Shown here piece by piece: positions 51,669-60,772 of a DNA stretch of 64,000 bases. How positions within the stretch are numbered: the first letter of the stretch is position 1; each line of letters begins with the position of its first letter. Position numbers and translations under genes: made by a program. Origin of the DNA: Patescibacteria group bacterium (GTDB lineage: Bacteria; Patescibacteriota; Minisyncoccia; UBA6257; JACRHW01); NCBI GenBank assembly GCA_028865725.1, contig JAGWJP010000003.1:1697-65696 (forward strand), read 5' to 3'. The notes below the pieces were generated by a model. That model searched no databases and was not told the DNA's origin. It worked only from the letters and a program-made list of their open reading frames with translations.

Positions 51669-53510
51669 ATGAACACAAGCATAACTTCACAACAGTACTT
51701 TGAACGGCTCGATATGCTCCCCGAAGACTTGAGAGACGCGTATTTTAGTCCGGACACTGAATCCATTATTGAAAAGGCAACGGAGGTAAACAACCTCACG
51801 CCCGAACAACTCAGTCTTGTCAAAGAAAATTCAGGATGGGTACTTCTTGGCTTTCTTCACCCCGATCATCTCGCAGAGATTTTAATACAGGACGCGGGAG
51901 TAAACCAAGCAACCGCTGTGATGATCGGACGGGAACTCAACCGCGATCTGTTTTTGCCGCACAAGAAATCTTTAACAGAAGTTCTCGTTACCTACCCACC
52001 CAAAAAAGAGTGGTTTGCAAATCTAGAAGGTAGAAAACAGAATATAGAAAATAACGAGGCCACACTCCCGAAAAATGATTCCATCATCCAGCGGCAAGCA
52101 CCCGCGCTGACACCGCCTACTCCAACGGCACCGCGTCCTATCGCGCCTCTCTCGCATCGGCTTACCCAGCCCACCCCTGTATTGCGTTCCGCGCAGCCTA
52201 TCACGCCGCCTCCCGCATCGACGCTTCCACCCCCTCCATCAACCTCGGCTCCTACCGCTTTGCACACGATCACCCCGCCACCTCTTGCCTCCGTAAGCCC
52301 CTCGGGGCTTCGCCCCGCGCTTCTTGAGGTCCAACCCCATGAAACAGATCAGACAACGACGGGTGTGCATAATCCCGTACCGCACGAAGAGGCAGAAGTA
52401 CGCACCGGCATGCCGTCTTCTGTGGCACCACAAAAACCACTCGCACAACCTTCCCTTGCTACACCAAGAAGAGTAGAACCCCAGCCAGATGCACGCCCAC
52501 ATACCACAGAACCACAAACCCCATGGACTCCGGCCCCGCTCCACTTCGATGCGCCTTCTGCCACCACTCCGCGGAGCGGATCTCCTGTACCCCCAAAAAC
52601 CTCTCCCTCTGTTCCCTTAACGCCACAGGCACCTCATACCATCTTTAAATACGGACCCCCCTCTCCACCACCCATTGTCGCAATTCCAAAAAACCAGCCG
52701 AATCCTTCCGTGCCACCCCTGCCCACACCTCGGCCTACCCCCGCAAGCCAACCTTCATCACCCCGTCCTTCTGCGCCGGCTCCTTTGGCACAATCCCGTC
52801 CCTTCACGCCCCCCTCAAAACCGGCAACGCCTCCCGCTCGCCCGAAACCCACAATGAATGGCGCTCCAGCATCACCCGTATCAAAAAATATTCCTGCCCG
52901 CGACACCGAGCCCTTGAATAACCCATCCGCCAATCCACGCATCGTCCAGCCTGCCCCAAAAGCACCGGAGCAAACTCAAAAACCGACCATGCCGAGCACG
53001 CCGTCGCCCTTGTCCCAGAACACCATGCCCCCACTTGCAACAAACACCCCGCCAGCGAACCCTTCCCCCAAGAATCATGCGATACCCGAAAAACAAGGAA
53101 ACAAACCCGAGGCTCAACTCATGGACTTATATCTCAAAAAACACGTCGGCGACGCGCAGACAGACTACCGAAAACCGACCGCGGAAAACAAGCAAACAGG
53201 AAGCGGGCAGATAGCAAATCGACGAGCGACCACCGGCTCGCAAACGGACGACAAACTACTGACCACAGAGAGCAAATCCCCGAAAAATGACAATGTCGCC
53301 CAGCGGCAGGCACCGAACGGGGATGGCGTTAAATCGGAGCAAGTGCAAAAAAATAATTCAATAAATGCAGCACGAGTCCCTTCGGCAAACTCAAAGCAGG
53401 CTTCCTCAACCACGCTCACCGATCCTCAGGTAATAGACCTTGAGGAATATAGTAAAACTCACAGAGGAAATGTGTTAAACTTAAAACAGGACGAAGAAAA
53501 TAGTAAATAG
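51669..53510 (+). CDS. protein with globular N-domain and ~450-aa Pro/Thr/Ser-rich low-complexity region
   Basis: 613 aa; PxxP-rich repeats. Confidence 0.4.
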   Translation: MNTSITSQQYFERLDMLPEDLRDAYFSPDTESIIEKATEVNNLTPEQLSLVKENSGWVLLGFLHPDHLAEILIQDAGVNQATAVMIGRELNRDLFLPHKKSLTEVLVTYPPKKEWFANLEGRKQNIENNEATLPKNDSIIQRQAPALTPPTPTAPRPIAPLSHRLTQPTPVLRSAQPITPPPASTLPPPPSTSAPTALHTITPPPLASVSPSGLRPALLEVQPHETDQTTTGVHNPVPHEEAEVRTGMPSSVAPQKPLAQPSLATPRRVEPQPDARPHTTEPQTPWTPAPLHFDAPSATTPRSGSPVPPKTSPSVPLTPQAPHTIFKYGPPSPPPIVAIPKNQPNPSVPPLPTPRPTPASQPSSPRPSAPAPLAQSRPFTPPSKPATPPARPKPTMNGAPASPVSKNIPARDTEPLNNPSANPRIVQPAPKAPEQTQKPTMPSTPSPLSQNTMPPLATNTPPANPSPKNHAIPEKQGNKPEAQLMDLYLKKHVGDAQTDYRKPTAENKQTGSGQIANRRATTGSQTDDKLLTTESKSPKNDNVAQRQAPNGDGVKSEQVQKNNSINAARVPSANSKQASSTTLTDPQVIDLEEYSKTHRGNVLNLKQDEENSK

Positions 53511-53514
53511 AAAA
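53496..53514. repeat. inverted copy of the AT-rich cluster motif (gaaaatagtaaatagaaaac)
   Basis: reverse complement gttttctatttactattttc ~ gttttctaatttctactttc at 54063. Confidence 0.5.
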
Positions 53515-53547
53515 CAAAAAATAGGTGGTGGTAACTACAAACTCATA

Positions 53548-53581
53548 TTATTCTAAATTCTATTTTCTACTTTCTAACACT
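53548..53581 (+). repeat. AT-rich cluster motif, forward copy (ttctaaattctattttctactttctaacact) immediately before ATG 53582
   Basis: shared core TTCTAWTTTCTACWTTCTAA with 54063, 54807, 56693. Confidence 0.55.
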
Positions 53582-53989
53582 ATGCAGGCAATGGTTCCAC
53601 AATTTATTGATGTAGAAGATCGCATCACCCCGCTTCTCACGATTAAGCAGTTTTTTTATTTAATAGCGGCGGGCGCGTGTTCGGCGATCCTCTACCCATT
53701 TTTGCAAACGATGCCATGGCTCGTACTTACTGCCCTTATATTAGGACTTGGAGCCGCATTCGGCTTTTTAAAAATTAACGGGCGCCCCTTTTCCGTAATG
53801 CTCTATATCGCTGCTAAATTTTTCTGGAACCCGCATCTTTATATGTTCCAGAAAAACATCACACGCGTGGAAATTTCCACGCCACAAGAACCTGTTCATG
53901 CGGAGAAAAAACGGGAACCTGAACGTGTTTCTTCGGAACGTCTCGAACAAATTTCACGCCTCCTCGATTCTAAAGGGGATTATAAGTAA
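53582..53989 (+). CDS. VirB3/PrgI-like small membrane protein
   Basis: ~135 aa, two adjacent TM helices after a short N-terminal segment, directly upstream of VirB4; ORF opens 53525 through the repeat. Confidence 0.45.
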   Translation: MQAMVPQFIDVEDRITPLLTIKQFFYLIAAGACSAILYPFLQTMPWLVLTALILGLGAAFGFLKINGRPFSVMLYIAAKFFWNPHLYMFQKNITRVEISTPQEPVHAEKKREPERVSSERLEQISRLLDSKGDYK

Positions 53990-54011
53990 GAAAATAGAAT
54001 GTAGAAATTAC
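53990..54011. repeat. inverted copy of cluster motif (gaaaatagaatgtagaaattac)
   Basis: gtagaaatta can pair with taatttctac at 54069-54078 (10-bp stem, ~57-nt loop). Confidence 0.5.
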
Positions 54012-54060
54012 AAAAGAGAACGCACAAAAACACTAACAGTTCTCCAAACAATTATAAACT

Positions 54061-54090
54061 CTGTTTTCTAATTTCTACTTTCTAAAAAAT
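54061..54090 (+). repeat. forward copy of cluster motif (ctgttttctaatttctactttctaaaaaat) before ATG 54091
   Basis: see above. Confidence 0.55.
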
Positions 54091-54735
54091 ATGGCTCAAG
54101 AATCTCAACCTACTCAACGCATCATCGATATTGAAACGATCCGAGATGGAACCGTTATCCTTAAAAACGGCGGGCTCCGCGCCGTAGTTATGGTACGCGG
54201 CATTAATGTTTATCTGAAGACGGAAAACGAACAAAATTCAATCATTAGCGCATTCCAGGAATTTTTGAACGGATTGGATTTTCCTATTGAAATCATCATT
54301 CATTCCCGCCGTCTCAATATCTTGGGGTATCTAGAAAAAATAAACGCGCGCAAAGAACAAGAAACTAATGACCTTCTCCGCACTCAAATAGATGAGTATC
54401 TTGCCTACATACGGGACCTCACCTCATCATCCACGATCATGTCAAAACGTTTTTACGTAGTTGTTTCGTACGATATGATTGCGCTTCCCGCACGCAAAGG
54501 AGGATTATTCCCACGTGCATCTCAAAACACATCGGCACTTCCTACTGATTTTGAAACTCAAAAATATCAGCTTGATCAACGTACTGATGTTATTATAGGG
54601 GGGCTTCAGCGCACGGGAGTCAATGCAGCACGCCTCGGTACCGAAGAGCTCGTCGAACTGTTTTATAATCTCTATAATCCTCAAGAAATAGAAAAGGGCG
54701 GCACCGACATTGCAAAACGACTGTCGTTAATATGA
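54091..54735 (+). CDS. VirB4-family protein, N-terminal fragment
   Basis: IIDIETIRDGTVILKNGGLRAVVMVRGINVYLKTENEQNSIISAFQEFLNGLDFPIEIIIHSRR matches the conserved N-terminal signature of Gram-positive VirB4 homologues (Tn916 Orf16/TrsE type). Confidence 0.55.
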   Translation: MAQESQPTQRIIDIETIRDGTVILKNGGLRAVVMVRGINVYLKTENEQNSIISAFQEFLNGLDFPIEIIIHSRRLNILGYLEKINARKEQETNDLLRTQIDEYLAYIRDLTSSSTIMSKRFYVVVSYDMIALPARKGGLFPRASQNTSALPTDFETQKYQLDQRTDVIIGGLQRTGVNAARLGTEELVELFYNLYNPQEIEKGGTDIAKRLSLI

Positions 54736-54806
54736 CAGTACCTAGAAAGAAGAAAACAGAAAATAAATAACATGAATACATCCCATTCACATTCTCTATT
54801 GTATAG

Positions 54807-54844
54807 TTCTATTTTCTACATTCTATTTTCTACATTCTAATACT
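54807..54844 (+). repeat. tandem duplication of cluster motif (2 x ttctattttctaca + ttctaatact) before ATG 54845
   Basis: 14-nt unit repeated head-to-tail at 54807-54820 and 54821-54834. Confidence 0.6.
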
Positions 54845-56650
54845 ATGGCATTTAATTTTCCTTTCTTTTCAAAGAAAAAAACAGAAGACCAAGACACATT
54901 TGGCCCTCTTCCTTCGCAGTATAAATTTGCAACGGATACGCTCCAAGACCTCTTGGCACCTCCGGGAATAGAAGCAACCAATGATTACTTGAAAATTGGA
55001 TCACTGTATACCAAAACGTTATTCCTGTTTTCATATCCCAATGTTCTTTCAAGCGGATGGTTTTCTTCGGTCATTAATATCGAAAAAAGCTTTGATATCG
55101 CCATTTACCTCGACCCCATGGACACCGCTACCGCGCTAAAAAATTTGAGAAAAAAAGTGGCGCAAATTGAAAGCCAATTGATGGAACAGCAGGAAAAGGG
55201 CCTCGTACGCGACCCTCTTCTCGAAGCATCTTACAAAAATATCGAAGGATTGCGCGATAGTCTTCAACAAGCAGAAGAAAAATTATTTAACCTTGGTATT
55301 TATATCACGATCTACGCTACGGACACATCCGAACTCCAGAAGTACGAATCCGAAGTAGCAGGATTGCTTGAGGGACGGATGATTTATATTAAGCCAACTC
55401 TCTTTGAGCATCTTGAAGGATTCCAAACTACTCTCCCGCTCGTATCCGACAAAGTACAGGTTTATACCCCTTTCGATACTGTTCCCATTTCGACACTATT
55501 TCCATTTGACTCCGCAGAACTTACCTCTGATGACGGGATTTTATACGGGGTCAACATGCACAATAACAGTCTCATTATTTTTGACCGCTTTTCTCTTGAA
55601 AACGCGAACATGGTTATATTTGCAAAGTCGGGATCCGGAAAATCTTTCTTCACTAAGCTGGAAATCCTCCGCAGTCTTATGATGGGAACCGACATTCTTA
55701 TCATTGACCCCGAAAATGAATACCAAGCTCTTTCCGAGGCAATCGGAGGAGGATATTTCCGTATTTCACTCTCTTCAGAACACCGTATCAACCCCTTTGA
55801 TCTTCCTCCCATTCCTCCCGACGAATCTCCATCCGATGTTTTACGTTCTCACATCCTCATGCTTACAGGACTTATTAAAATCATGGTGGGGGAGATTACT
55901 CCTACGGAGGAGGCCCTCATCGATCAAGCGCTTCTCGAAACATATGCCTCTCGAGAAATCGTGCCCGATTCTAACTTTACAGGAAAAACACCGCCCCTGC
56001 TCTCCGATCTCCAGACGGTTCTTGAAAGCATAGAAGGGGGGGCGGATCTTGCAAAGCGTCTCGAAAAATATACAAAAGGAACCTATGCGGGCTTTTTAAA
56101 CAGTCCGTCCAATGTACAAATCAGAAACCGTCTCACGGTATTTAACATCCGTGACCTCGAAGAAGAACTCCGTCCTATCGCCATGTATATGATCCTAAAC
56201 TTTATGTGGAGCCTGATTCGCGCGGAATTTAGAAAGCGCCTTCTTATCGTTGACGAGGCATGGGTACTCATGAAATACGAGGATGGGGCAAACTTTTTGT
56301 TTGGTATGGCAAAACGAGGCAGGAAGTATTTCCTTGGCATCACGACCATTACGCAGGATATTGACGACTTTCTGCGTTCGCCCTATGGACGCCCCATTGT
56401 CACAAACTCCTCGTTACAATTATTGCTCAAACAATCTCCCGCAACGATTGATATTATAGGAACCACATTCAACCTTACGGAAGCAGAAAAGATGATCCTC
56501 CTCGAAGCAAATGTGGGGGAGGGGATCTTTTTTGCGGGATTACGCCACGCCGCCATTCATGTCATCGCCTCTTACACCGAAGGTAAGCTTGCTTCTACAA
56601 AACCACAGGAATTACTTGCAAGAATGGAAGGAAAAACAGAAACGCAGTAA
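54845..56650 (+). CDS. VirB4-family ATPase, C-terminal part (ATPase domain)
   Basis: DYLKIGSLYTKTLFLFSYP N-domain continuation; Walker A AKSGSGKSF; Walker B LLIVDEAW; 601 aa. Confidence 0.8.
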   Translation: MAFNFPFFSKKKTEDQDTFGPLPSQYKFATDTLQDLLAPPGIEATNDYLKIGSLYTKTLFLFSYPNVLSSGWFSSVINIEKSFDIAIYLDPMDTATALKNLRKKVAQIESQLMEQQEKGLVRDPLLEASYKNIEGLRDSLQQAEEKLFNLGIYITIYATDTSELQKYESEVAGLLEGRMIYIKPTLFEHLEGFQTTLPLVSDKVQVYTPFDTVPISTLFPFDSAELTSDDGILYGVNMHNNSLIIFDRFSLENANMVIFAKSGSGKSFFTKLEILRSLMMGTDILIIDPENEYQALSEAIGGGYFRISLSSEHRINPFDLPPIPPDESPSDVLRSHILMLTGLIKIMVGEITPTEEALIDQALLETYASREIVPDSNFTGKTPPLLSDLQTVLESIEGGADLAKRLEKYTKGTYAGFLNSPSNVQIRNRLTVFNIRDLEEELRPIAMYMILNFMWSLIRAEFRKRLLIVDEAWVLMKYEDGANFLFGMAKRGRKYFLGITTITQDIDDFLRSPYGRPIVTNSSLQLLLKQSPATIDIIGTTFNLTEAEKMILLEANVGEGIFFAGLRHAAIHVIASYTEGKLASTKPQELLARMEGKTETQ

Positions 56651-56711
56651 GTAGAAATAGGAAAGGAGATGCGGAGTCTTAAATTTTGTTTACTACTTTC
56701 TATTTTCTCGT
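56651..56711. repeat. inverted (gtagaaatagga) and forward (ctttctattttctcgt) cluster motif copies flanking intergenic region
   Basis: same motif family as 53990/54061. Confidence 0.45.
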
Positions 56712-57413
56712 ATGTCTCGTGGTATAATAACAGTAATGCGTCAATTCCTACTTTTTGTATTTGCCGTGTTGTTTGCCGCCATACCCGTTTCATATGCGGC
56801 GAGTTCTCATTTTCTTACATGGAAAACAAATACCTATGTTCCTCAGGAGTTTTGGGGCAAACCGCTTCCTATAAAAGGATCGGCCGTCACGCTCAGCGTG
56901 CAATCCCTCGACCCTCAAGAATCGTTTTCAAACATACCGATAACATGGTATGTCGACAACATCATAATTGCACAAGGTAATGGCCTCTCCACCACCCCCT
57001 ATACGGTAACAGAAGGTCCCGGACTGTATGTCATCAAAGCATTTTTGCGCCTTCCTGACGGTACTCCTGAAACCCTCACCGCTCCCCTCAAAGTAGTCGC
57101 TCCGTTCGTGTCGCTTGTAGAACAACATGCGGCTACTGTGAATCATCAGATCTCTACCGCAAACACCGAGCTTCGCTTTCACGCCATTCCACTCTTTTAC
57201 AACACATCGTCCCTCCTTGGCCTTGCTTTCACGTGGGGAGTGGGGGATGTAACAAGCGAAGACCAAAATCCTCAAAATCCCGATTACGCATCCATTACTT
57301 TTCCAGAAGGAGCATCGTCCGGATCGCGCGGTACCGTCACAGTTAGCGTGACAAATATTGCGCATCCTGATGAACATGCTTCACAGTATACTACTGTAAT
57401 CACTCCCCAATAA
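56712..57413 (+). CDS. secreted hypothetical protein
   Basis: signal peptide MRQFLLFVFAVLFAAIPVSYAASS (alt start 56736); 233 aa. Confidence 0.4.
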   Translation: MSRGIITVMRQFLLFVFAVLFAAIPVSYAASSHFLTWKTNTYVPQEFWGKPLPIKGSAVTLSVQSLDPQESFSNIPITWYVDNIIIAQGNGLSTTPYTVTEGPGLYVIKAFLRLPDGTPETLTAPLKVVAPFVSLVEQHAATVNHQISTANTELRFHAIPLFYNTSSLLGLAFTWGVGDVTSEDQNPQNPDYASITFPEGASSGSRGTVTVSVTNIAHPDEHASQYTTVITPQ

Positions 57414-57427
57414 TACACCGGCTACCT

Positions 57428-58243
57428 ATGAAACGACTCTCTTTCGCCATTCTATTACTACTTGTCACCATGTTTCTTGGTGCGGGAATATTCTCGCTCG
57501 TATCCGCTGCTCCGCCGCCTGGTGATGTGACGCTCTCAGCGGGTCTCCCGGGGACTGGAAACACGCAAGAAATTAAACCCGGGGAAACCATACACGTCCA
57601 AACACTTGACCAACTTACAAATTATCTAAGCACGCTTATTCGTTTTCTGTTCGGACTTGCCGCGGTACTGGCTGTCGTCTCTATCGCATGGGCAGGTCTC
57701 CAATATATGGCAGCGGGGGCAAGTATTGGTAATATGCGCGCCGCAACCGATCGTATTCGCAACGTGATCTTTGGACTCGTTCTGCTCCTTACCGGGTTTT
57801 TAATCCTCCGCACCATCAATCCCAAAATTCTCAGCGGTCTTCCTGGAGAAGAAAAACTCCCTTTTCTCCCGATCATCAACGCGCCACAAGTTCAAACACA
57901 GGAAGTAACAATGAAAGTAATTAACCAAACAAAAGCAATCAAAAATACTAATGTCGACACTTATGTCCAACAGCGATTAACCGACAATGGCGGAAACCAA
58001 ACAAAAGCAATCAGCGCAACAACACAAATACTAAGTGAAATACGAGTGAGGATAGCTAAAGAGAACGAGGAGTTGAACAACTTAAAAAACCAAATCAATA
58101 CAACATCTGATCCAACCACCAAAGCTCAATTGGAATCATCTTATGGAGAATCCAGAGGAAATTTGCAACGAGATCAGGCAAGCTTGGCTCGAGAGCAAAA
58201 GACACTTCAAGTATTACAATCACAGTCAAACACGACACCTTAG
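57428..58243 (+). CDS. VirB2/TrbC-type pilin-like protein
   Basis: signal peptide, then two hydrophobic helices (LSTLIRFLFGLAAVLAVVSIAWAGLQYMAAGAS ; VIFGLVLLLTGFLILRTI) separated by a short basic loop, plus Q/N/T-rich tail. Confidence 0.45.
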   Translation: MKRLSFAILLLLVTMFLGAGIFSLVSAAPPPGDVTLSAGLPGTGNTQEIKPGETIHVQTLDQLTNYLSTLIRFLFGLAAVLAVVSIAWAGLQYMAAGASIGNMRAATDRIRNVIFGLVLLLTGFLILRTINPKILSGLPGEEKLPFLPIINAPQVQTQEVTMKVINQTKAIKNTNVDTYVQQRLTDNGGNQTKAISATTQILSEIRVRIAKENEELNNLKNQINTTSDPTTKAQLESSYGESRGNLQRDQASLAREQKTLQVLQSQSNTTP

Positions 58244-59590: not shown

Positions 59591-60034
59591 TTAAGGATTA
59601 TAAGGCCTAATTGTTACATAACGATTATCACCCTCTCCCTTACTCTCCGTAATAATATCAGGATGTACGGCAAGTTCAAGGTGAATAATGCGCCGTTCAA
59701 AGGGTTTCATGGGAGGAAGTCTAACTTCTTTTTTGGTCGTCACTACTTGTCGGGCTATTTTTCTAATATATTCCTTCAATTTTCCTTCCCGTTCACTCCT
59801 GTAATTATTAATATCAATAGAAAATACAGTGTCAATATTACTGTGTTTTGCGAGAAGTTTTAGTACTCTCTCGATATCAGAAATGTTTTCTCCATTTTTT
59901 CCAATCATAAACCCCGCGTCGTCAAGAGATATCTGTATTTTTGCAGCAGTACCCAGAAAGACCGCACTTACCTGTGGGTTCTGGATTCCCATATTATGTA
60001 AAAACTCTTCGATGAGTGTTTGGAGCTGTCCCAT
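59591..60034 (-). CDS. jag: Jag/KhpB-like RNA-binding protein (KH + R3H)
   Basis: IGKNGENI KH GxxG loop and C-terminal R3H (RRIIHLEL); adjacent to yidC. Confidence 0.8.
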   Translation of the reverse strand: MGQLQTLIEEFLHNMGIQNPQVSAVFLGTAAKIQISLDDAGFMIGKNGENISDIERVLKLLAKHSNIDTVFSIDINNYRSEREGKLKEYIRKIARQVVTTKKEVRLPPMKPFERRIIHLELAVHPDIITESKGEGDNRYVTIRPYNP

Positions 60035-60055: not shown

Positions 60056-60772
60056 TTATATTTGTTTTATCTCCGTTTCAAGAGATTCTGACTGAATAAT
60101 ACGTTTTGTTACTACGTATTCACCAATGGAGAATACCGTACTTGCGATCCAGTACAATCCTACCACTGCAGGTAGTTTTACCAAAATAATCAACGTTAGT
60201 AAAGGAAACACAAAAATCATAGCCGACATCATTTGGGCCGCTTCTCCTCCCGCAGTATTCGGCATAAAGAATTTTGACTGTATAAACTGAAGAAGCGCGG
60301 CAACAAGTGCCACTTCAATAAGAGGTGTGTTTACATCGAAAAGACCTAAAAAGGTATGATGGACAGGAAGAGTAATATGAATAAATGAATAGAGGGAGGC
60401 CTGAACATTAGAGGAAAATGCCTTCATACTGATACGATAGAGTGTAATAAGAAGCACTACTTGTACAATGATAAAAAGAAAACCTGAAAAAGGATTAATT
60501 TTGTGCCTTTCATACAAGTGCATCATAGCCTTCACCTGGGCTTCTTTGTCGTCTTTATGCTCTTTTTGTATTTTTGCCATCTCAGGCTGAAGCTTGCTTA
60601 GTACCATCTGGTAGCGCATATTTTTGTGAAAAATAGGAAAAATAGCCAAGCGCACAACAATAGTAAACAAGATAATAGCAATGCCCGCATCTGAAAAAGC
60701 AGCGGTGTGGTAAATAAAAAATAAAAGATTGGTAAGCGGTCTTACTATAATTTCATTATAGAGAAAAACCAT
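60056..60772 (-). CDS. yidC: membrane protein insertase YidC (short form)
   Basis: GIAIILFTIVVRLAIFPIFHKNMRYQMVLSKLQPEMAKIQ conserved TM2-loop region of YidC/Oxa1; 238 aa. Confidence 0.85.
   Translation of the reverse strand: MVFLYNEIIVRPLTNLLFFIYHTAAFSDAGIAIILFTIVVRLAIFPIFHKNMRYQMVLSKLQPEMAKIQKEHKDDKEAQVKAMMHLYERHKINPFSGFLFIIVQVVLLITLYRISMKAFSSNVQASLYSFIHITLPVHHTFLGLFDVNTPLIEVALVAALLQFIQSKFFMPNTAGGEAAQMMSAMIFVFPLLTLIILVKLPAVVGLYWIASTVFSIGEYVVTKRIIQSESLETEIKQI

Follow-up and report, generated by a model that had tools for sequence, protein, structure and literature searches.

Type IV secretion systems (T4SSs) of Patescibacteria have TrsD as their most abundant component, with 2,272 homologues in the phylum, 1,664 of them adjoining virB4 (PMC12102498; Quinonero-Coronel et al., 2025). 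TrsD is remotely homologous to the N-terminus of VirB4 and its function is unassigned; it is essential in Ca. S. epibionticum ML1, and the T4SS often lies near the replication origin (PMC12102498). In the one cultured model, the epibiotic lifestyle depends on the T4SS. In the described loci (PMC12102498; Ca. Southlakia epibionticum ML1, Wang et al., 2023), a TrsD gene of ~210 amino acids (aa) stands directly upstream of a virB4 of ~570–600 aa and downstream of a PrgI/VirB3-like gene; these loci are chromosomal and near dnaA/oriC, with VirB2-like pilin genes nearby. We analyzed a locus of this kind in a 64,000-nucleotide (nt) stretch of Patescibacteria DNA (contig JAGWJP010000003.1; hereafter the window), in which VirB4 is encoded by two open reading frames (ORFs), ORF1 and ORF2, separated by a spacer built of heptad repeats. 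L and P numbers below are our labels for loci and proteins.

The window locus shares all of these features and differs from the described Patescibacteria systems in having ~60–110-nt heptad palindromes in four spacers, and otherwise in nothing essential. The proteins TrsD/TraD and TrsE/TraE of the staphylococcal plasmids pGO1/pSK41 (the MPF-FATA subclass) and related gene triplets of Bacillota likewise have a stand-alone homologue of the VirB4 N-terminus between the VirB3-like and ATPase genes, but the Bacillota plasmid proteins are just 22–30% identical to those of the window. Full-length VirB4 proteins (R388 TrwK, 823 aa; the CD1110 family of CTn2-like elements; pCF10 PrgJ) share the fold and motifs, and ORF1 and ORF2 together cover their whole length; there, however, VirB4 is a single polypeptide. 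The split of VirB4 is thus already known as the published, standard architecture of Patescibacteria T4SSs, and as a discovery it is minor. Our addition is modest: the complementarity of TrsD and the short VirB4, and their collinearity with rare fused proteins, are made explicit here and are not stated in the published survey (PMC12102498). This collinearity predicts a concrete role for TrsD, that of a detachable N-terminal module of VirB4.

We are highly confident that VirB4 is encoded here by two genes, ORF1 and ORF2, both intact and each translated separately, as part of a chromosomal T4SS. The initial annotation, made from the DNA letters alone, had placed a VirB4 N-terminal signature in a 214-aa ORF ending at 54735 and the remainder of VirB4 in another frame from 54845, and this description is confirmed. 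The two starts fall in different frames (54091 mod 3 = 1; 54845 mod 3 = 2), so that the ~800 residues of VirB4 are not carried on one polypeptide, the first ~200 lying on the separate upstream ORF. Walker A (GSGKSF; ORF2 residues 263–268, nt 55631–55648) and Walker B (LLIVDEAW, containing the annotated IVDEAW; residues 466–473, nt 56240–56263) are both in ORF2, and the products sum to 214 + 601 = 815 aa, the normal VirB4 length that had been pointed out; the two are collinear with fused proteins of 780–790 aa.

Homology of ORF1 to VirB4 N-termini, which the initial annotation had asserted, is confirmed by NCBIfam profiles, precomputed Pfam matches and a fold search, as well as by the fused relatives described below. 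ORF1 matches the NCBIfam profiles VirB4_plasma (positions 100–234 of 894, E = 9e-14), TrsD/TraD (NF041427; positions 21–144 of 201, E = 3e-7), CD1110 (positions 2–120 of 752) and VirB4_CagE (positions 18–123 of 792). Precomputed data list a match to PF26593 (TraC-like) for P0001, a protein identical to the ORF1 product, and for each of the best 120 homologues. Our local Pfam search, with a library that apparently had no PF26593 model, returned nothing for ORF1 at E ≤ 0.01 (a weak TraC_F_IV match had E = 0.035), and a sequence search of the PDB gave no match. An AlphaFold (AF2) model of ORF1 built on 26 homologues had a pLDDT of 77. When this model was compared with the PDB using Foldseek, the best 14 matches were all chains of R388 TrwK/VirB4 (E = 4e-4, probability 1.0, query TM ~0.48), the next match having E = 0.09. 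The predicted fold of ORF1 thus matches the N-terminal part of R388 TrwK/VirB4.

ORF2 carries the remainder. Its Pfam matches are P-loop_TraG (E = 2e-27, 96 bits against a cutoff of 25.8), AAA_10 and DUF87, and it scores 358.1 bits against the CD1110 profile (cutoff 325). The stronger PDB sequence match is to the ATPase domain of Thermoanaerobacter VirB4 (4ag5, E = 2.7e-42); residues 255–550 align more weakly to TrwK 446–734. The CD1110 profile is therefore divided between the two proteins, with positions 2–120 in ORF1 and positions 183–728 of 752 in ORF2. The same division is seen in rare relatives that encode VirB4 as one protein. In L005 (786 aa) and L013 (790 aa), ORF1 residues 1–213 and ORF2 residues 32–593 align back to back, and in P0222 (780 aa) ORF1 residues 4–206 align to residues 5–212 (48% identity) and ORF2 residues 30–592 to residues 214–776 (63% identity), with one to two residues separating the aligned parts in these proteins. 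The ~30 extra residues at the N-terminus of ORF2, which follow its own ATG, are common to its closest relatives. Because the fused relatives are seamlessly collinear with ORF1 plus ORF2, no VirB4 residues are missing at the junction. Arithmetic from the profile and PDB alignments would place the break inside the N-terminal domain, at roughly TrwK residue ~190–200.

ORF1 corresponds to the first ~200 residues of VirB4, and ORF2 to the rest of the N-terminal domain together with the Walker A/B ATPase domain. The two polypeptides may associate non-covalently and so rebuild a complete N-terminal domain, which in R388 is the membrane-proximal part packed on VirB3. We also modeled a fused homologue. 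With many ORF2 homologues in the alignment, MAFFT placed those of ORF1 on the C-terminal half, and the model was therefore made from a shallow alignment, the sole one in which both halves were placed correctly (pLDDT 65, pTM 0.43). It aligned to TrwK over the whole length (~800 columns, E = 5e-18), with a TM of 0.27 and an rmsd of 27 Å.

The two-gene state is general among relatives. The best 120 homologues of ORF1 are all 203–241 aa long, at identities down to 40%, and 119 of the best 120 homologues of ORF2 are 567–604 aa long. We collected 82 related loci with both parts, mostly from species representatives of Patescibacteria. About 79 keep two genes with intact ORFs and only two (L005 and L013) are truly fused. 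An apparent 842-aa fusion at L045 (3950–6478) was rejected, as a run of N translated as X bridges two genes there, a pitfall for any automated counting of fused versus split genes. In the 77 split loci measured, the median distance between TrsD and VirB4 genes is 8 nt. The genes are in contact or overlap in nine loci and lie 1–12 nt apart in 38, 13–49 nt in nine, 50–130 nt in 16 and more than 130 nt in five, so that 47 of the 77 have gaps of ≤12 nt. The order PrgI-like, TrsD-like, VirB4 is kept in the relatives, where, as in Bacillota plasmids, the gene call at the first position is PrgI. Triplets of PrgI, a VirB4-N-like protein and a DUF87 ATPase are present in Geobacillus pGspE55-1 (L089:3875–6728) and B. 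thuringiensis Bt407 BTB_502p (L090:3869–6827); the middle protein, annotated as hypothetical, is 318–328 aa long, ~100 residues longer than its Patescibacteria counterpart, and its gene overlaps the ATPase gene by 14 nt. Since most Patescibacteria have this order, as do some plasmids of Bacillota that are of the pGO1/TrsD type, PrgI-TrsD-VirB4 is, as judged from these comparisons, an old and stable arrangement and not a recent disruption.

With the split accounted for, the remaining interest of the locus is its spacer elements, for which we found no description in the searchable literature; searches on split VirB4, on intergenic palindromes of Patescibacteria and on the PF05635 cassettes discussed below returned none. 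The 109-nt spacer between ORF1 and ORF2 (Table 1) consists of a purine-rich left arm (54743–54770), a middle of ~36 nt and a pyrimidine-rich right arm (54784–54841). Tandem Repeats Finder (TRF) identified the tandem duplication of the initial annotation as an exact repeat of TTCTATTTTCTACA, identical in four assemblies and enclosed in a looser 7-nt array (54784–54839); the stretch that had been called homopolymeric is in fact heptad-periodic. Within the window, TTCTATTTTCTACA with ≤2 mismatches has seven matches against 0.6 expected, and the three-heptad pattern TTCTANNTTCTANNTTCTA has 23 against 2.4 expected, 22 of them within 52017–56709.

Four consecutive spacers, upstream of the ATGs at 53582, 54091, 54845 and 56712, have one design. 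A purine-rich left arm of TAGAA-type heptads adjoins the preceding gene's stop codon or overlaps it; a middle part of ~15–60 nt follows, and then a right arm, rich in pyrimidines and made of TTCTAnn heptads, that reaches up to the ATG. The arms are complementary in all four, and the predicted hairpins are modest, with fold stabilities relative to shuffled sequences as given in Table 1. In the PrgI-TrsD spacer the 25-nt arms are 88% complementary, and upstream of the PrgI-like gene the left arm overlaps the final codons and stop of the preceding gene. A translational-coupling hairpin sequestering the ORF2 start was considered and rejected, as the ORF2 ATG is unpaired in the predicted fold, which is no better than those of shuffled sequences.

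A TAGAA-type heptad array also occurs at 52017–52049, within the coding sequence of a 613-aa proline-rich ORF (51669–53510), where it is possibly a palindrome arm absorbed into coding sequence. The same ORF contains a 47-nt direct repeat, 72% identical, at 52056–52102 and 53268–53314.

Spacer elements come and go among close relatives. At ~72% identity to ORF1, L084 and L085 have gaps of 1–3 nt (L084, 3 nt) and no element, yet are split, while L086/L087, L088 and L001, at similar identity, have spacers of ~90–120 nt. All of the latter are long imperfect palindromes (−20 to −50 kcal/mol, z down to −8), folding much more strongly than those of the window (z −4 to −8). The L086, L088 and L001 palindromes belong to differing sequence families, and one family can occupy different spacers in different genomes (L001_d, L088_c and L086_a; L001_a/b/c and L086_b). 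L001 has two copies that match at 100% identity over 107 nt and at 98% over the whole 116-nt unit. Because they are dispensable, multi-copy and site-hopping, the spacer palindromes behave, by these sequence comparisons, as a repeat element and not as a conserved regulatory RNA.

REP/BIME elements, MITEs and the heptamer STRR arrays of cyanobacteria are also short, palindromic, built of repeats, multi-copy, intergenic and polymorphic for presence. The present elements differ from these in that our data contain no link to a transposase, and the associated gene encodes a four-helix-bundle PF05635 protein instead of a RAYT or insertion-sequence transposase. A Y1 transposase gene (PF01797; IS200/IS605 or RAYT-like) with 45-nt inverted repeats, 84% complementary, is found at L001:10890–11669, just downstream of the secretion cluster of the closest long relative. 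It could not be linked to the palindromes, as its inverted repeats do not resemble them.

PF05635 is the family of proteins encoded in 23S rRNA intervening sequences (IVSs), and genes of this family occupy the same junction in relatives. Wherever the TrsD-VirB4 gap exceeds 400 nt (four loci: L016, L025, L032 and L033), it holds a PF05635-family ORF. For three of these ORFs a Pfam check gave E-values of 3e-27 to 1.5e-35; the L025 ORF, which is broken in two, was assigned by tblastn (E = 8e-31). All four are flanked by inverted repeats of 20–31 nt made of short periodic units (z 5.8–12), and these cassettes span from the TrsD stop to the VirB4 ATG. Further PF05635 genes lie among secretion-system genes (Table 1). 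The units bracketing the PF05635 genes have a 7–8-nt period, and seven of the nine PF05635-family genes first tested have flanking inverted repeats (z 6.3–13.5). The PF05635-family genes here are also weakly bAvd-like. L020 contains one ORF-bearing copy and two ORF-less copies of 113 nt with common arms, and one of the ORF-less copies is in the TrsD-VirB4 gap.

When metagenomes were scanned for runs of four TTCTAnn heptads, most of the 120 loci returned were tandem repeats of no relation, and only L099, L112 and L193 were informative. In L112 a 130-aa 23S_rRNA_IVP gene (PF05635, E = 5e-13) lies beside a VirB6-like gene and between inverted TTCTAAC arrays, and L099 and L193 have the same bracketed layout. 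The window spacer arms are 90–93% identical to those of L193 over 21–27 nt and share blocks of 12–16 nt with L025, L112 and L032, including the ...TTTTCTACTTTC...CTAACAC(T/A)ATG end beside the start codon. Two further loci were set aside: L178 has secretion genes, with its array 6 kb away inside a coding region, and the array of L181 is protein-coding. In L181 (1333–2307; array 1385–1425), five perfect copies of TTTTCTA encode the hydrophobic segment FLFSIFYFLFSI of a protein whose gene is flanked by homologues of two window genes (233 aa and 410 aa); its upstream spacer has two GC-rich hairpins.

The 109-nt spacer is probably a later addition to a pre-existing intergenic junction. It is probably an ORF-less miniature derivative of the ~420–500-nt PF05635 cassettes seen at the same junction in relatives; the 14-nt duplication would have arisen by local slippage within the heptad array. 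Our confidence that the window spacer belongs to this cassette family as an ORF-less member is moderate. The nearest described elements are the IVSs of 23S rRNA, which occur with an S23p/PF05635 ORF (Coxiella, Leptospira) or without one (~100 nt in Salmonella; PMC4990558); the Coxiella IVS of 428–444 nt has an S23p ORF and a 28-bp terminal stem cut by RNase III (PMC4990558). The relatives' cassettes resemble them in size (~420–500 nt), PF05635 ORF and inverted repeats (20–48 nt), and the window's ~100-nt ORF-less palindrome, sporadic among close relatives, resembles the ORF-less form. The present elements differ in lying between protein-coding cistrons, and hence in mRNA and not in 23S rRNA, and in having arms that are heptad-periodic AT-rich arrays; the window copy is in addition ORF-less, with a weak predicted stem. 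By analogy, an effect at the RNA level, such as RNase III cleavage between cistrons, is conceivable. If the stems are cut as in 23S rRNA, this would be tolerated in an mRNA, since excision merely separates the cistrons. A scan of the 64-kb window for an RNase III signature motif was negative and is uninformative.

More broadly, and tentatively, the PrgI-TrsD-VirB4 spacers of many Patescibacteria might have been colonized by IVS-like elements, the full forms being PF05635 (S23p/Avd-like) cassettes and the ~100-nt forms their ORF-less derivatives, which would constitute a new class of mobile element at intercistronic junctions of highly expressed operons. If true, the loci would provide a large comparative data set on what 23S rRNA IVSs and their ORFs are. 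Confirmation genome-wide would mean that IVS-type elements are not confined to rRNA genes, and would offer many natural comparisons of presence and absence for mobility and transcript tolerance.

We regard the overall explanation, a two-gene VirB4 with a later-added spacer element, as very probably correct. Several observations weigh against it. ORF1 scores 30.4 bits against the NF041427 TrsD/TraD profile, far under the cutoff of 200, and by this score is a homologue, not a member, of that curated subfamily. A physical TrsD-VirB4 complex is putative, and the fused-homologue model is too poor to show how the two parts pack. With respect to the spacer, the 109-nt hairpin (−14.4 kcal/mol) is no more stable than shuffled sequences. 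The similar arms are low-complexity heptad arrays that could converge, and the cassettes show both arm polarities, pyrimidine-left and purine-left. Finally, tblastn found no PF05635 ORF anywhere in the window, so that the window copy can only be the ORF-less form.

The alternative that survives best concerns the spacers. The palindromes could be a dedicated regulatory device of the operon (intercistronic hairpins, protein-binding heptad arrays or internal promoters) that sets the relative expression of PrgI, TrsD and VirB4 or the stability of their mRNA, instead of selfish IVS-like debris. The shared architecture and orientation of four consecutive spacers, with the pyrimidine arm abutting each ATG, would suit such a device. 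So would the co-occurrence of long PrgI-TrsD and TrsD-VirB4 spacers across loci (Spearman 0.34, p = 0.003), the strong structure of most of the relatives' 50–130-nt spacers (z down to −7), and the use of ordinary GC-stem/T-run terminators in other window spacers. However, sister genomes of the same divergence lack the element (L084), which shows it to be dispensable. Sequence conservation between relatives is lacking, and families move between spacers. A scan of 53400–56800 gave six promoter-like sites against 7.0 expected and two terminator-like sites against 3.2, an Rfam scan gave nothing but a chance miRNA match (E = 0.69), and the start codon is not sequestered in the weak predicted fold of the 109-nt spacer. 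We consider a dedicated device unlikely. Regulation is nonetheless compatible with the element origin we prefer, as a domesticated selfish element could also regulate.

TrsD might instead be an accessory paralogue in its own right, similar to the VirB4 N-terminus without being the missing piece of VirB4. The literature speaks of remote homology only and assigns no function, and TrsD homologues of Gracilibacteria mostly do not adjoin virB4 (PMC12102498). Against this, ORF2 lacks exactly the profile region that ORF1 covers, the fused relatives join the two parts with hardly a residue between them, and the fused-homologue model, its poor geometry aside, follows TrwK from end to end. Independence of TrsD from VirB4 is accordingly quite improbable, and complementary parts of one VirB4 are the better description.

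The initial annotation had also offered a virB4 that was once continuous and is turning into a pseudogene after the AT-rich repeat inserted into it. The spacer does resemble an inserted element, and fused genes do exist in the phylum (L005, L013 and P0222). However, the split falls at the same residue position in about 79 of the 82 loci, mostly with gaps of 0–12 nt and no repeat, and intact ORFs persist to ~40% identity. Measured against their homologues, neither window ORF is shortened. ORF2 starts at an ATG of its own and carries an N-terminal extension common to its closest relatives, which are not fused, and L084 is split with no spacer at all. A recently broken gene is effectively refuted. 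Of the annotated coincidence of the split with an inserted repeat, the causal part fails, as the split long predates the repeat; an insertion is probable, into a junction that already existed.

The last of the options first listed, an artefact of assembly or sequencing such as a frameshift or a collapsed repeat, would find some encouragement in a low-complexity tandem repeat whose copies assemblers can miscount, but its chance is close to nil: the 161-nt junction (54700–54860) is 100% identical in another NCBI metagenome-assembled genome (GCA_028868355.1) and in Logan assemblies of two separate runs (SRR32006850 and SRR32006849); stops in all three frames (54733 and 54838 in that of ORF1; 54728, 54743, 54764 and 54773 in that of ORF2; 54768 and 54804 in the third) mean that no single indel or change in 14-mer copy number can fuse the ORFs; and most relatives are split likewise, with 0–12 nt between the genes.

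Table 1. Coordinates of genes, palindromic spacers and PF05635 genes; positions are those of the window unless a locus is named.
Feature	Position	Strand	Size	Remarks
PrgI/VirB3-like small membrane protein gene	53582–53989	+	135 aa	Counted from ATG
ORF1, TrsD-type gene (stand-alone VirB4 N-terminal subdomain)	54091–54735	+	214 aa	
ORF2, VirB4 ATPase gene	54845–56650	+	601 aa	Without first ~180–210 residues of full-length VirB4
Gene downstream of VirB4	56712–57413	+		ATG at 56712
jag/KhpB-like gene	59591–60034	-		
yidC	60056–60772	-		
dnaA	61481–62914	+		
Palindrome upstream of PrgI-like gene	53488–53581	+		Arms 53488–53512, 53551–53575; fold −18.8 kcal/mol, z −3.2
Palindrome between PrgI-like and TrsD-like genes	53990–54090	+		Arms 53995–54019, 54060–54084; fold −19.2 kcal/mol, z −2.6
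Intercistronic spacer ORF1-ORF2, ORF-less palindromic TTCTAnn-heptad element	54736–54844	+	109 nt	z −0.75
Exact tandem TTCTATTTTCTACA within right arm of ORF1-ORF2 spacer	54807–54839	+	14-nt unit, 2.4 copies	TRF 100% matches, score 66
Palindrome between VirB4 and next gene	56646–56711	+		Arms 56646–56669, 56684–56708; fold −17.5 kcal/mol, z −1.35
PF05635 ORF in TrsD-VirB4 gap	L016:4684–5043			
PF05635 ORF in TrsD-VirB4 gap	L025:4680–5055			
PF05635 ORF in TrsD-VirB4 gap	L032:4715–5068			
PF05635 ORF in TrsD-VirB4 gap	L033:4683–5027			
PF05635 gene among secretion-system genes	L020:3562–3885			
PF05635 gene among secretion-system genes	L023:3551–3898			
PF05635 gene among secretion-system genes	L112:3392–3784	-		
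PF05635 gene among secretion-system genes	L099:8774–9121	-		
PF05635 gene among secretion-system genes	L193:165–497	-		

The genomic company of VirB4 in the window comprises the PrgI-like gene, a T4SS_pilin gene and a VirB6/TrbL-like gene. The PrgI-like protein matches Pfam PrgI with E = 5.9e-5, under the gathering score; its gene bounds equal a gene call (2492–2899) in the identical contig L211, and the ORF listing would allow extension upstream to a GTG at 53525. A 271-aa protein encoded at 57428–58243 has a T4SS_pilin/TrbC-VirB2 domain (PF18895, E = 2e-7), which is consistent with the pilin genes reported at Patescibacteria secretion loci. The homologue of a 793-aa window gene gives TrbL/TrbL_3 matches in L002 and L112 (VirB6/TrbL-like). 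The jag, yidC and dnaA genes follow directly after the secretion cluster, 2 kb downstream. GC content falls and cumulative GC skew is lowest at ~62 kb, which places the secretion cluster right beside the replication origin, a position also reported in many Patescibacteria.

The secretion-system genes show no purine tract of Shine-Dalgarno type ahead of their starts (ATGs inspected: 53582, 54091, 54845, 8821 and 37057). Several of the starts have a common context, (A/T)ACTATG, which may be a non-canonical initiation context in the source organism.

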